From the sequence record OL631482.1: a stretch of DNA of 64,000 bases, one strand, 5' to 3'. A model generated the notes under the pieces. It was given only the letters and a program-made list of their open reading frames with translations. It made no database searches and was not told where the DNA came from. Positions 23,107-32,075 of the stretch are shown in pieces. How positions within the stretch are numbered: the first letter of the stretch is position 1; every line of letters starts with the position of its first letter. A program made the position numbers and the translations under genes. This DNA comes from Escherichia phage ECML-359.

Positions 23107-23131
23107 GTGTAACTCAGTATGGAATCATTAT
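23107..23131 (-). repeat. conserved 25-nt early-leader motif, copy 1 of 4 (plus-strand gtgtaactcagtatggaatcattat)
   Basis: The same 25-mer recurs near 40358, 57266 and 61493, each immediately downstream of an early promoter -10 on the minus strand. Confidence 0.6.
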
Positions 23132-23156
23132 GCACTGGGCAAATCCTGTTGTAAAC
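23126..23156 (-). promoter_or_regulatory. T4-type early promoter (-35 GTTTACA, -10 cATAAT)
   Basis: Minus strand reads ggggTTTACAacaggatttgcccagtgcATAATGattcc. Confidence 0.5.
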
Positions 23157-23173
23157 CCCTTTATGGAAAATAA

Positions 23174-23200
23174 AAAAGGGACTCCGAAGAGTCCCTGAAC
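23174..23200 (-). terminator. rho-independent terminator
   Basis: GGGACTC-ttcg-GAGTCCC hairpin followed by TTTTTTATTTT on the minus strand. Confidence 0.6.
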
Positions 23201-23362
23201 TTATGCTTTCGGCTTACCAAAGCAAGCTGCATCGGCGCGCAATACCGCACGAGCACGAGCCTGAAGTTTATCAGTCACCTGATTGATTCGCTTGTTGGAC
23301 GCACGCTTGTAACCAGCGCGTTTGGAGGAGCCATCAACAACTTTAACTTCTTTCTTAGCCAT
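23201..23362 (-). CDS. small basic protein (53 aa)
   Basis: Hand-found ORF MAKKEVKVVDGSSKRAGYKRASNKRINQVTDKLQARARAVLRADAACFGKPKA, immediately followed by a terminator. Confidence 0.4.
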   Translation of the reverse strand: MAKKEVKVVDGSSKRAGYKRASNKRINQVTDKLQARARAVLRADAACFGKPKA

Positions 23363-23759
23363 ATTAAATTCTCTTTAAAATAGAAGCAGGACTTATTGGC
23401 ATTGCCTGCGCAAGCCCTCGAAGGGAACATTAGGTTTCGGATATTTAACGACAGGATAACCATAAACCTCGTCATCATACCTTATAGCTCTTATCTGTTG
23501 CACACCGTTAGCTTAAAGGTTCCGGGTTCGATTTCTCGAGGATAAGATATATACTGATGGATATATAGGCCTTGAGGCGTACTCCCGATTGGCCATCACC
23601 TCGGGGTAGCATGCACTTGCCGCTATAAGAATAACATTCAAGAGGTACACCGTAAAACTGCCGGGGTCTTAAAACTATAATGATTCGCAAATCATTAATC
23701 AGACGGTTCGACGGCTCCTCGATTTTCTAGCCGCACTAAGGTAGCGAATCACCTACAGC

Positions 23760-24014
23760 TTACTTCAGGGTTACGACAAAATGGCGAACAGCTTTACGGG
23801 CAGCAGATGCCAGCGGCTTAGCAAATTTCAGTTCATCTTTTGCTTCGAGCACTGCGCGAAGGTCGGTTTGAACCGGGTTAAGATGTTTGAAATACTGCAG
23901 AATTTCCAGTGCTTCGGCTTCAACATCAATAGATGCGCCGTAGTTTTCGTGACCGTTATTCCATGCAGTGCGTTGCAGTTCGAGAGCGTGTTGTAATTGT
24001 TTGTTTAAAGACAT
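23760..24014 (-). CDS. rIII: rIII lysis-inhibition accessory protein
   Basis: Start placed at internal Met24 (84 aa; T4 rIII is 82 aa); sequence MSLNKQLQHALELQRTAWNNG... Confidence 0.7.
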   Translation of the reverse strand: MSLNKQLQHALELQRTAWNNGHENYGASIDVEAEALEILQYFKHLNPVQTDLRAVLEAKDELKFAKPLASAARKAVRHFVVTLK

Positions 24015-24185
24015 TTTAGAAGCCTCAATATGAGGTGAATATTTGGTGGACACGTTCTTCTGAATTTCACTTCCTTTCGGCAAGTCTCTCAGTTGTAGTC
24101 CACCGTTTAGGATTAGCTAACCCCATACACCAGCAAAGCTCTGTATGACATCAACCAATCCATATTATTATTTATAACGCTAATT

Positions 24186-28835: not shown

Positions 28836-28839
<4 letters not shown>

Positions 28840-29318
28840 ACACCAAGCTCCTTATAAAGTTCTTCGCGGCAGGTTTTAAGGATTTTACCAGTTTCATAAG
28901 CTGCACTTTCAGAAACATCACCAAGTGCAGCGGCAGATTGCATTTGACCATGGCGTTTAGCTGCATATTCAAAACTTTTTACTAGCTCACGAATACGTTC
29001 TTTTTCATTGTACTCTTCAATGAATTCAGGGTATTCCCAAACTGGGCGCATCATACGATACCACTGTTGGATGGTAATATAATTACTTCCATCCAGATTA
29101 ATAATTTGCGAAGGCTTAATAGCGCCCGGGGCATAAAAAGTTACCTGTCTTACTACATCAATACCGTCCACAATAGCCCAAGCAAAATCGAAAGTTGCCT
29201 TCTTTTCAATTGGTGTACTTGCACAGGACCCTAATTTTAAGAGCTTTTGTAATGCAGGGGATTTAACACCTGAAATGTATTCAGGATTAGCTACAAAAGA
29301 ATTGTCACGTAAAGTCAT
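28836..29318 (-). CDS. hypothetical protein
   Basis: Start moved to Met13, because the ORF-track ATG lies inside the -10 element of an early promoter. Confidence 0.45.
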
Positions 29319-29352
29319 AGTCATTTCCTCAAATTTTATAATCCGTAGGAGC

Positions 29353-29384
29353 ATTATACTCTGCTCCCATGAGTTTGTACACTA
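29353..29384 (-). promoter_or_regulatory. early promoter cassette (GTGTACA -35, TATAAT -10)
   Basis: Minus strand reads aagtaGTGTACAaactcatgggagcagagTATAATgc; near-identical copies at about 59880 and 60293. Confidence 0.5.
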
Positions 29385-29485: not shown

Positions 29486-29776
29486 TCATTTGCAACGTTC
29501 CTCTTTTAGTTCAGAACGATAATAACATAACATACCTTTTTGGTCACGTACATATCTTTTTACATCATTCATCCAAATCCTGAATTCTTGCGATGCTTCA
29601 AAAGGCATACCAACCCAGGCTTGGCCCTCAATTACCTTCACTTCCCATTGCTGTTTGTAATCAGCCAATGCAACAGGCCAATTAGGATGAACTTGGATTG
29701 TGGGCTCCACAACGGGCTTCTGGGCACATGAAACGAGTCCAATAGCCAAACATACTGCCATGATAGATTTCATCAT
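29486..29776 (-). CDS. pseT.2: o-spanin, outer-membrane lipoprotein (T4 pseT.2 type)
   Basis: Signal peptide with lipobox (MMKSIMAVCLAIGLVSC), 96 aa; ATGA overlap with the i-spanin gene. Confidence 0.7.
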   Translation of the reverse strand: MMKSIMAVCLAIGLVSCAQKPVVEPTIQVHPNWPVALADYKQQWEVKVIEGQAWVGMPFEASQEFRIWMNDVKRYVRDQKGMLCYYRSELKEERCK

Positions 29777-30126
29777 TTGGTGAGCTCCTGGAAGTCCTGG
29801 GCGAACTTATCAAAAGACTGATTAATCTGTTTTTCAACTAATTTAGGCTTCGCTGCCACAACCTTAGTACGTTTTGCATCTGCACGAAGTTTATCATTTT
29901 CCTTCTGTAAGTGTTCAACATATTCCTGGCGCTGTTGGTCAAGGAGATTAATTTGATTAACCTGGTCTTTTATTGATTGCAGATTTTTCGCATTATCTTC
30001 TGCGACTTTGGTGACTTCCGCCACCGCTGTCTTGAGATTATCCACTTTTGCTTTTAGATAGAAACCACTACCAGCAGTTACTACCAGGGCGAGCATAAGC
30101 CCTGCAGTGAGATTACTTATTTGCAT
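29773..30126 (-). CDS. pseT.3: i-spanin, N-terminal TM helix plus periplasmic coiled coil (T4 pseT.3 type)
   Basis: N-terminal hydrophobic helix LTAGLMLALVVTAGSGFYL followed by a charged coiled coil, 117 aa. Confidence 0.7.
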   Translation of the reverse strand: MQISNLTAGLMLALVVTAGSGFYLKAKVDNLKTAVAEVTKVAEDNAKNLQSIKDQVNQINLLDQQRQEYVEHLQKENDKLRADAKRTKVVAAKPKLVEKQINQSFDKFAQDFQELTK

Positions 30127-30620
30127 AACTTGATGATTACCTCAACAATATCATCCTGGGATAAACCATTCAGGAGGATGTGATTTGTACTGTCAGATGC
30201 TGAAATGCGGAACTGATTACCAACTTCATCCGCCATATCATCCTGGGTTAACACTGGGTGTTTAATTCCCAGGCGGTGTTGAAGTGTCAGGGGTTCAACC
30301 ACAACATAACAAACACATCCATTGATATGCACATTAGGTTGGGTCTGATTGATGAACACTTCTGCATCATATTTAACCAAATGGTTCTTTAAGAAGTCAA
30401 CCATTTCAGGAACAGATTCATGCAGTGCTTCTTTCCGCTCTTCTGATTTTTTATCGCGGTATTCTTTTTGTTTCGCTTTCAACTTTTTATTGGAGGCGAG
30501 TTTTTTCCGCAAGTCAGTCATGAGACCAATTTTCTTGGTCCCTTTATAGACATAAATTCCGTCATGACGGTCACCATATTCATTGACAATCATTTCATTT
30601 GAAATCAGTTGCATATCCAT
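30117..30620 (-). CDS. alc: Alc-like protein (167 aa)
   Basis: First ATG with a GAGGAAA RBS gives 167 aa, the length of T4 Alc, in the T4 alc position between the spanins and rnlA. Identity by position and length only. Confidence 0.5.
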   Translation of the reverse strand: MDMQLISNEMIVNEYGDRHDGIYVYKGTKKIGLMTDLRKKLASNKKLKAKQKEYRDKKSEERKEALHESVPEMVDFLKNHLVKYDAEVFINQTQPNVHINGCVCYVVVEPLTLQHRLGIKHPVLTQDDMADEVGNQFRISASDSTNHILLNGLSQDDIVEVIIKLCK

Positions 30621-30633
30621 AATATTTTCCTCA

Positions 30634-30867
30634 TTAGTAGCGGTTATAACCCCGGGGACCAAAAGAGTTGGCACCCAGGCGCTCATCTTTCTTTTTGGCT
30701 CTTGCTCTAAACCCAGAATCACCTGTTTGAGCTTTCAGTTCTTTTAACAATTTGGCCTTCAGGTCAGTAATGAAACCAATCCGGCGGTCTCCCTTGTAGA
30801 CATAGATTCCATCATTTCTGTCACCATATGCCTGTGTAACTCTTTCATTTGTAATTAAGTTTAACAT
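30634..30867 (-). CDS. truncated paralog of the Alc-like N-terminus (77 aa)
   Basis: Residues 1-45 (MLNLITNERVTQAYGDRNDGIYVYKGDRRIGFITDLKAKL) are about 55% identical to the downstream Alc-like N-terminus; the underlying DNA is also a direct repeat. Own GAGGA RBS. Confidence 0.45.
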   Translation of the reverse strand: MLNLITNERVTQAYGDRNDGIYVYKGDRRIGFITDLKAKLLKELKAQTGDSGFRARAKKKDERLGANSFGPRGYNRY

Positions 30868-30897
30868 GTTTTAGTCCTCATCAGTAGTTGATGGAAC

Positions 30898-30927
30898 CAT
30901 TATGTATAGAAAGGAGGGGCTTGTACA
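30898..30927 (-). promoter_or_regulatory. early promoter (GTGTACA -35, cATAAT -10)
   Basis: Minus strand reads aaaaaaggggtGTACAagcccctcctttctatacATAATGgttcc. Confidence 0.45.
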
Positions 30928-30938
30928 CCCCTTTTTTA

Positions 30939-32075
30939 TTATTCAGGAAGGATTACTTCCGCTTGGTAGTCCGACGGAATGTAAAGTTTATGATTTTTAA
31001 GGAAAACTTTATTGATTTGAGCAATCGTTTGTTCAGTTTCCTGTGGGCGTTGATAGGTGTTCATTAATACGGAGAACAATCCCGGGTACGGTTTGCACAA
31101 CTCTTGACCTTTAATCGCGAACTCGCGACGGTCTTTCCCTGCTAACTGTTTCTGGGCATCAAGCAACAATCCAAGAGTGTTGGACAGATAATCCAGATGC
31201 GTTACAGTAAAGGCATTAACTTTTTCGCGAGCATATGTATCGCCAGTAAACATGGCAATAACATCATCAGCGCCGCCAGCAACAACAACTTCAAACAGAC
31301 GCTCATTATTATTAATGGAGTCTTTAGTATGATGTAGAGCACAATACCATTCTGTTTTCATCTTGAACTTCTGACCGTTAGCCAGCTCATAGACGAAGCC
31401 TTCAATCTCTTTCATACCACGAACATTCTCAATGCTCGCCGGGTCATATGCTTCAACCAGGAAAGGACGGAGCGCAGCATCTTTGAACAGTTCCTGATAA
31501 GGAATATATTCACCAGTTTCATTATGGCGAACGTTCAGTAAAATCAGGTCACGTTCCTGGTAAGGCAAAACAATGCGGTTGGTTGGTGCAACATATTCCA
31601 TATTGCATGTATAACCAGCTTCAGTGATTTCAGTTACGCGAGCCCTGAATGCACTGCGATGCTCTTGTTTAAACACCTGCAAGGATTCAGCGGCCTGTGA
31701 GCTTTTGATTGACCCTTTGGATTTAAAGGCGATATTAGTCTGGTCCATATAAGTAGAAACCAAACTACCATCAGCTTTTGCAGTAACCAGGACAACCTCA
31801 TCAAGGTTAAGGTCCATGGTCATTGGATTCTCACCCAGATTAAAGAATTTTTCCATAGGCCGGGCGGCAATGCGAACTGGACCATTGTCATCCATTTCAA
31901 ACATAATGCCACGGCACTCCAGCGCATCATCAAGAAGCCAATCACTATAGGAAGCATAGTTATAGCTAAAGATGCGGAACTTAGTTTCAAATGGAGAAAC
32001 AAAATCCGTATAGAAAAACTTACCTTTATCGGATTCGGCGCAAAGCTTCATTAAGTTATCATATAATTCAATCAT
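30939..32075 (-). CDS. rnlA: RNA ligase 1
   Basis: 378 aa, similar to T4 RnlA (...FFYTDFVSPF.TKFRIFSYNYASYSDWLLDDALECRGIMFEMD...). Confidence 0.85.
   Translation of the reverse strand: MIELYDNLMKLCAESDKGKFFYTDFVSPFETKFRIFSYNYASYSDWLLDDALECRGIMFEMDDNGPVRIAARPMEKFFNLGENPMTMDLNLDEVVLVTAKADGSLVSTYMDQTNIAFKSKGSIKSSQAAESLQVFKQEHRSAFRARVTEITEAGYTCNMEYVAPTNRIVLPYQERDLILLNVRHNETGEYIPYQELFKDAALRPFLVEAYDPASIENVRGMKEIEGFVYELANGQKFKMKTEWYCALHHTKDSINNNERLFEVVVAGGADDVIAMFTGDTYAREKVNAFTVTHLDYLSNTLGLLLDAQKQLAGKDRREFAIKGQELCKPYPGLFSVLMNTYQRPQETEQTIAQINKVFLKNHKLYIPSDYQAEVILPE

Follow-up and report, generated by a model that had tools for sequence, protein, structure and literature searches.

A truncated Alc paralog under selection in Gaprivervirus phages, with evidence for a partial tandem duplication of alc

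The alcb-alc locus

The stretch analyzed here, 64,000 nucleotides (nt) of Escherichia phage ECML-359 (record OL631482.1; hereafter the window), carries on its minus strand a 77-codon gene, alcb, directly followed by alc, the gene of the Alc inhibitor/terminator of host transcription. Megablast places the window in Gaprivervirus, the SP18/VR7/VR20 group of T4-like phages, and 32 full-length records cover the alcb-alc stretch with 92.8-98.3% identity. The order of genes on the minus strand is rnlA, alcb, alc, pseT.3, pseT.2 and then pseT, which puts alcb between rnlA and the pseT.3/pseT.2 spanin genes, the position of the Alc family. An initial annotation had described the 77-amino-acid (aa) open reading frame (ORF) as a truncated duplicate of its neighbor; the translation it quoted is exact, and the neighboring Alc-like frame reads from the ATG at 30620 to 30117 with the 167 residues it had given.

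The gene has been annotated before. SP18 (2010) lists alca and alcb, the latter as 'similar to N-terminal region of bacteriophage JS98 Alc', and the SP18 protein (YP_003934864), VR7 ORF243c and PHROG 17715 represent the same gene, with 94-100% protein identity, the same position and no structural difference. Residues 1-77 of alcb align with positions 1-77 of phrog_17715, a 77-position family of PHROGs v4 (E = 1.6e-53). The gene was thus already catalogued and is no new discovery. In VR7, VR20, VR25, VR26 and others, alcb bears the label 'inhibitor of host transcription', which on a 77-aa protein is a homology transfer and probably overstates its role. No functional or evolutionary analysis of alcb/VR7 ORF243c was found in the literature searched; the present analysis adds evidence of strong selection on the tail and defines its motif, dates the duplication relative to the genus, points to a likely coupling with alc and gives a picture of the Alc domains.

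Homology to the Alc N-terminus and a direct repeat in the DNA

Comparison of alcb with the adjacent Alc by BLASTP gives 32/64 identities (50%) over Alc residues 1-62, with an E-value of 2e-17. Over the first 40 residues a hand count yields 24 identities, so that the N-terminal identity of about 55% reported earlier is a fair figure. The Pfam ALC profile (PF17527) matches alcb residues 2-59 with 41.5 bits (E = 1.4e-10; cut-off 25 bits), and this match is confined to profile positions 3-62 of 177, with nothing beyond position 62. Likewise, phrog_1253, the Alc family of PHROGs, is matched only at positions 3-63 of 169 (E = 4.8e-13). Five residues (I5, G15, D19, I21 and G31) are invariant across Alc and alcb, and G20, D35 and L36 are present in at least 90% of the sequences. 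The full-length Alc architecture of about 165-170 aa, with its N-terminal module (N-module), 47-residue helix and C-terminal alpha/beta domain, is absent from alcb.

At the DNA level, gapped local alignment recovers a direct repeat of 30898-30760 against 30651-30510, with 101/136 identical positions (74%) and a score of 93 as compared with 23 ± 3.3 in 1000 shuffles (z = 21). The diverged repeat noted initially is thus real and stands up to self-comparison of the DNA and to alignment statistics, although the limits given for it (30720-30867 versus 30480-30620) were slightly off. Its ungapped seeds (D1-D3) are spaced by 247-250 nt, and the offset of 247 nt is also the spacing of the two ATGs. 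The repeat sets in 31 nt upstream of each ATG and fades after about codon 36, which implies that the leader and Shine-Dalgarno sequence were copied together with the coding region. Within the two leaders, 20/31 positions match in register, as counted by hand from the alignment. By arithmetic on the same alignment, the repeated leader and codon 73 of alcb start at one and the same base, 30651, so that codons 73-77 and the stop of alcb are read from the alc leader. The in-register leader repeat, the 247-nt offset and the coincidence at codon 73 together point to a head-to-tail duplication geometry, with a unit that extends from position -31 to codon 72 or so. The proposal of the initial annotation, that the alc 5' end underwent a partial tandem duplication and so produced a truncated N-terminal paralog, is thereby supported by the Alc homology, the Pfam match, the repeat seeds and the local alignment (Table 1).

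The possibility that the two leaders evolve in concert, or exchange sequence by gene conversion, was also considered and found no support, orthologous alcb leaders being alike at 25-26/34 positions and paralogous leaders of the same genome at 21-23/34.

Table 1. Positions of genes, repeat copies and other features around alcb in the window
Feature	Position	Strand	Basis
rnlA, gene 5' of alcb	32075..30939	-
Promoter-like site TGTACA-17 nt-CATAAT, likely early promoter of alcb-alc	30899..30927	-	Consensus scan, sequence match only
Direct repeat copy A: leader and alcb codons 1-36	30760..30898	-	Local alignment
alcb leader and Shine-Dalgarno GGTTCCATCAACTACTGATGAGGACTAAAAC, 5' end of copy A	30868..30898	-	Starts directly after the -10 hexamer
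alcb, 77 codons and stop, truncated Alc paralog	30634..30867	-	BLASTP, Pfam, phrog_17715
alcb residues 1-53, N-terminal module as in Alc (helices 7-14 and 33-53, beta-hairpin 22-32 between them)	30709..30867	-	AlphaFold2 model
alcb residues 54-77, predicted disordered basic tail with motif	30637..30708	-	AlphaFold2 confidence (pLDDT); four-lineage alignment
Direct repeat copy B: alc leader and alc codons 1-37	30510..30651	-	Local alignment; seeds D1-D3
alc leader and Shine-Dalgarno, also alcb codons 73-77 and stop; putative duplication junction	30621..30651	-	Local alignment
alc (alca in SP18), 167 aa, inhibitor/terminator of host transcription	30117..30620	-	ATG at 30620; full-length Pfam ALC match of 166 bits; annotations
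pseT.3, i-spanin-like	30126..29773	-	ORF list
pseT.2, spanin gene	29776..29486	-	ORF list

Selection on the alcb reading frame

Selection was assessed on the window and 14 related genomes. In all 15 the alcb frame is intact and 77 codons long, and a tblastn search finds 34 phage records with a place that spans at least 80% of the alcb query with no gap-breaking stop. The pooled Nei-Gojobori ratio of nonsynonymous to synonymous differences (pN/pS) is 0.123 for the whole of alcb versus 0.119 for alc. The most strongly constrained part is formed by residues 46-77 (pN/pS 0.043), a region that is no longer Alc-like. Among codons 50-77, each of the 12 variable nucleotides is silent, where about 24% would be expected to be silent by chance (binomial P = 3e-8), and for the whole gene the excess of silent changes remains marked (binomial P = 1.7e-6). 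The silent changes include a CGG<->AGA arginine swap, which requires two base changes. The variation at third codon positions and this two-base synonymous swap argue for selection on the amino acids rather than on the RNA.

These patterns bear directly on the decaying duplicate that the initial annotation had offered as one outcome. Such a pseudogene would be in keeping with the shortness of alcb relative to Alc, and a frameshifting deletion does occur in a single metagenomic contig (L023). Decay should nevertheless have left disrupted frames or a pN/pS near 1, and neither is seen: the gene is intact in 15/15 genomes with tail changes that are all silent, it is covered to at least 80% in the 34 records, and it is conserved in relatives far more diverged than the genus. 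We consider this reading highly improbable and indeed already refuted by the selection pattern. That alcb is a real, selected gene derived from alc is, on the contrary, very likely.

The contig with the deletion (L023; ENA ERZ27239..., contig k141_9694) is of metagenomic origin and Gaprivervirus-like. It has lost 34-35 nt of the alcb tail at ~1660-1700, leaving a 75-aa frameshifted product that overlaps the start of alc.

Expression signals and alternative readings of the frame

The promoter-like site upstream of alcb is of the sigma-70 type and lies directly after the rnlA stop. Its last base, 30899, is followed immediately by the repeat, and part of the site coincides with a small hairpin resembling a terminator (30932-30915). 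Nowhere else in the region do the 15 genomes vary so little (pi about 0.01). In more distant relatives, sites similar to GTTTAC-N17-TATAAT, the pattern of T4 early promoters, were recognized by eye in the corresponding position. No second copy of the promoter was found before alc. The short gene has, as noted initially, a ribosome-binding site of its own, the Shine-Dalgarno sequence GAGG 8 nt before the ATG, and its stop codon falls 11 nt before the alc ATG. In every lineage this stop abuts or overlaps the alc Shine-Dalgarno (TAATGAGGA, TATTGAGGA, TTCTGAGGA, TTTTGAGGA). Given a putative early-type promoter before alcb, none before alc and a stop abutting the Shine-Dalgarno, alcb and Alc are probably made from one transcript with coupled translation. 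Farther downstream, the last 10 nt of alc (30117-30126) are also the first of pseT.3, and pseT.3 overlaps pseT.2 by 4 nt, making the alcb-alc-spanin unit tightly packed.

The arrangement of stop and Shine-Dalgarno in every lineage could also mean that the alcb peptide is irrelevant, the frame merely delivering ribosomes to the alc start or an RNA element of the alc leader accounting for the conservation. We regard this as very unlikely in view of the third-position variation and the two-base arginine swap described above, and of a tail motif that is held at the protein level where the DNA of the lineages has diverged.

A further alternative treats alcb and alc as the source of one product, either through a frameshift or as a longer Alc translated from an upstream start. 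In the window, the alc frame (+1 with respect to that of alcb) meets no stop upstream as far as 30722, which gives an ORF of 201 aa with a GTG start, and Alc proteins of 188-189 aa are annotated in some records (189 aa in UPEC01 and vB_YenM_P8). The extension is, however, interrupted by a stop in TH44 (L003), and its amino acids vary freely through the same substitutions that are silent in the alcb frame. The ATG at 30620 has, moreover, a conserved ancestral leader (ATGAGGAAAATATTATG), also found in single-copy relatives. Because the extension varies and TH44 has a stop in it, a conserved frameshift fusion and the 188-189-aa models were both rejected, and we judge this alternative extremely improbable. 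The 188-189-aa gene models themselves are, from these alignments, likely start-site errors. Long Alc calls that overlap alcb through an upstream ATG occur in the records UPEC01 and vB_YenM_P8 and in the protein clusters P0003 and P0004; the segments concerned are 30621-30722 (minus strand) in the window, 1918-2487 in L002 and 918-1487 in L007.

Distribution and age of the duplication

Outside the genus, three metagenomic contigs (L015, L016 and L017) whose Alc is 75-77% identical to that of the window have a 77-78-aa ALC-domain gene between rnlA and alc, and a fourth alcb lineage (P0028/L024) was found in the protein database. These distant orthologs are 42-49% identical to the alcb of the window. 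Comparison with related phages thus shows a conserved ORF that is homologous to Alc and not an unrelated gene. In lineages with an Alc 60-63% identical, a single alc directly follows rnlA, and among 719 phage records with an Alc-like tblastn match, two places are found only in those of Gaprivervirus. Since relatives with an Alc only 75-77% identical already carry alcb, the duplication is older than the genus; on these sequences it is not recent and predates the split from those relatives.

With alcb as query against 1.8 billion representative proteins, phmmer returned only alcb, Alc, the 63-aa fragment P0033 and long repetitive proteins. P0033 is an ALC N-terminal fragment 61% identical to alcb. 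The long proteins (P0029-P0031, P0034 and P0035; 645-1414 aa with 5-12 matched stretches) were taken as compositional or repeat artefacts, because Pfam assigns them to scattered unrelated families and no stretch is individually significant. A scan of IMG/VR with the alcb alignment gave VR20, VR25, VR26 and ordinary Alc genes, and no new alcb lineage.

The origin of the copy can be considered in the same light. In a neighbor-joining tree of the N-module (first 45-48 residues) the alcb proteins group together, with too few sites to resolve the donor of the copy. Instead of a duplicate of the resident gene, alcb could be the 5' fragment of a foreign alc recombined in upstream of it, all the more so as its identity to T4-type Alc (54.5% over 55 aa) is about the same as that to its neighbor (50%), T4-like genomes are mosaic, and nucleotide diversity in the neighboring alc is highest toward the N-terminus, where 62 nt match a Karamvirus alc at 90.5%. 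The in-register leader repeat, with codon 73 on the first leader base, has instead the geometry of a head-to-tail event, and the alcb proteins share derived characters besides clustering together, within what a 45-residue tree can resolve. A foreign origin is therefore in our estimation unlikely, and a tandem duplication of the resident alc is preferred.

Tail motif and predicted structure

The AlphaFold2 model of alcb has mean predicted local distance difference test (pLDDT) values, in blocks of 10 residues, of 91-93 for residues 11-40, 79 for residues 1-10 and 76 for residues 41-50. For residues 51-77 the block means drop to 52-55, and this part is presumably disordered. The Alc model, from a 22-sequence alignment, reaches a pLDDT of 92 and consists of helix 8-15, beta-hairpin 23-33, one long 47-residue helix (34-80) and an alpha/beta domain (87-166). 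By comparison of the two models, alcb is predicted to retain the helix, the hairpin and the first third of the long helix of Alc, while the rest of this helix and the C-terminal domain would be replaced by a disordered basic tail. The earlier proposal that the short protein keeps the Alc N-terminal domain fits these predictions. By two methods, the best PDB matches of the Alc C-terminal domain are the T4 MotA DNA-binding domain; the alcb model itself gave no informative structural neighbor. Neither a solved structure of Alc nor any literature on its structure or domains was found.

Across the four lineages, the tail holds R63, N67, F69-G70-P71, N75 and an aromatic C-terminus invariant, in a motif that can be written R-x-G-x-N-S/T-F-G-P...N-K/R-F/Y-stop. 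No second NSFGP-type motif was found in the six frames of the window. The divergent basic C-terminus remarked upon initially is confirmed by a net charge of +5 for the tail and a pI (isoelectric point) of 10 for the whole protein; in all four lineages the pI is ~10 with a net charge of +6 to +8, as against a pI of 6.65 for Alc. The full-length phrog_17715 match and the tail motif with a stop abutting the alc Shine-Dalgarno are both features of the alcb type.

The homology of alcb to T4 Alc (unf/alc; PF17527, PHROG 1253), the terminator of host RNA polymerase on cytosine-containing DNA, extends over residues 1-62. The two also have in common the predicted succession of a helix, a hairpin and a helix, the rnlA-alc-pseT.3 locus and the early-type promoter context. 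The short protein differs from T4 Alc in lacking residues ~63-167, that is, most of the long helix and the whole domain resembling the DNA-binding C-terminal domain of MotA, and in having a disordered basic tail with its own motif, which makes it strongly basic rather than near neutral.

Nucleotide diversity around the locus

Among the 15 Gaprivervirus genomes, a local peak of nucleotide diversity (pi about 0.15) is observed at 30460-30560 of the window, corresponding to alc codons ~20-55, as compared with 0.01-0.03 elsewhere in alc and 0.01-0.05 over the N-module of alcb. Two haplotypes of the alc N-terminus are present, MDMQLISNEMIVNEY... and MNMQLISNDMIVDVY..., and the 62-nt stretch mentioned above, which has its 90.5% match in alc of Enterobacter phage IME523, suggests mosaic recombination. 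Diversity is very high at 29200-29320 (pi 0.31-0.36), at the 5' end of a 172-aa ORF (29354..28836), and the annotated gene content between pseT.2 and pseT varies among records. This region is a variable cassette adjoining the conserved spanin genes.

Discussion

The account that best explains the observations as a whole, and which we favor with moderate confidence, is that alcb is a functional early gene that arose from one tandem duplication of alc and would serve as a partner or modulator of Alc-type shutoff. A single event of ~247 nt, comprising the alc leader and roughly the first 72 codons, may go back to an ancestor that Gaprivervirus shared with some uncultured relatives. Of the two copies, the one upstream would have kept the Alc N-terminal module and lost the rest of the long helix together with the entire C-terminal alpha/beta domain. 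Codons ~50-72 and the five codons from the duplicated leader would then have evolved into the disordered basic tail with the motif G-x-N-S-F-G-P...N-K/R-F/Y.

As to its function, alcb keeps only the module shared with Alc, devoid of the DNA-binding-like half, and for this reason it would most likely bind whatever the Alc N-module binds. Alc binds RNA polymerase, and paf mutations map to R368 and P372 of the beta subunit (PMC2988021, PMC2939025); the Alc mechanism is still unsolved decades after its discovery (PMC2988021). Candidate targets of alcb would be Alc itself or the host RNA polymerase, in the vicinity of the site that paf mutations mark on its beta subunit. On its own, alcb gives no reason to expect transcription termination. 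It might instead modulate the Alc-type shutoff by competition, by formation of hetero-oligomers or by retargeting, and through its basic tail alcb may have acquired a contact that Alc lacks, with nucleic acid or with a host protein. We consider it about as likely as not that alcb takes part in the Alc/RNA polymerase pathway by way of the common module. That it specifically modulates or antagonizes Alc is a tentative proposal, which we hold with low confidence.

Alternatively, alcb may act independently of Alc and RNA polymerase, the N-module being a mere stable scaffold and the tail performing another job, such as binding nucleic acid or a host protein. The tail is indeed the most constrained part of the protein (pN/pS 0.043) and has no counterpart in Alc, alcb is very basic (pI 10) next to a near-neutral Alc, and the function of the Alc N-module is not established. 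Two observations argue in the other direction, namely the linkage to alc with a coupled stop and Shine-Dalgarno in every lineage carrying alcb and the preservation of the core N-module residues (I5, G15, D19, I21 and G31). An independent role is the main rival to the reading favored here, and we give it about the same low confidence as a specific modulation of Alc.

Several points weigh against a role for alcb as a functional partner of Alc derived from a single 247-nt unit. Taken by itself, the DNA similarity over codons 37-72 is not significant by shuffling (P about 0.11-0.15), and the proteins show only marginal similarity over this part (P = 0.003, also by shuffling); the 247-nt unit, its junction and its 3' boundary are for this reason inferred. 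Within the genus, the alcb N-module is under weaker constraint (pN/pS 0.385), with only 10 variable sites. The deletion in L023, a single case, could be an assembly error or a real loss variant, in which event the tail can be lost. Finally, the modulator step follows from domain logic, and the alcb product is known here from its sequence and predicted structure.

A more specific proposal links alcb to the DNA chemistry of the genus. According to two comparative studies (PMC8056088, PMC12115623), Gaprivervirus phages lack the dCMP hydroxymethylase (gene 42), yet carry alc, denA, denB and dCTPase, and both studies suspect a DNA modification of unknown nature. In SP18, no gene 42 is present in the syntenic uvsX-imm-43 slot, and T4 gp42 matches nothing there or in the window. 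The segment of SP18 in the slot that holds beta-gt/gene 42 in T4 (23130-24026; L037 2131-3027) contains two hypothetical genes of 176 and 47 aa, for which no significant Pfam match and no similarity to T4 gp42 were found. This content agrees with the published lack of dCMP hydroxymethylase in the genus. The only cultured group with alcb is the genus that lost the synthesis of hydroxymethylcytosine, a coincidence in one lineage that carries no statistical weight. By binding Alc or its site on RNA polymerase, alcb might retune or restrain termination, a link that we consider doubtful at present. If it is true, transcription of the non-hydroxymethylated phage DNA would continue with that of the host DNA kept off. 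As a natural separation-of-function fragment, alcb could then help to explain the docking of Alc and its sensing of DNA.

The organization of alcb can also be compared with that of microProteins, truncated paralogs such as Id for bHLH (basic helix-loop-helix) proteins or LITTLE ZIPPER for HD-ZIPIII, which are reduced to an interaction module and act by titration, either of the full-length protein or of a protein that it binds. By analogy, alcb is a small truncated paralog beside the regulator from which it derives, probably co-expressed with it, in which one autonomous module is predicted to be kept and the putative effector or DNA-facing domain is gone. The likeness is drawn here from sequence, and alcb differs by the conserved tail that it has gained, a sign of some additional function and not of titration only. 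As a naturally occurring, strongly selected fragment with the Alc N-module only, alcb offers a handle to split the functions of Alc, in which the N-module and the MotA-like C-terminal half may prove separable for RNA polymerase binding, self-association and DNA sensing.

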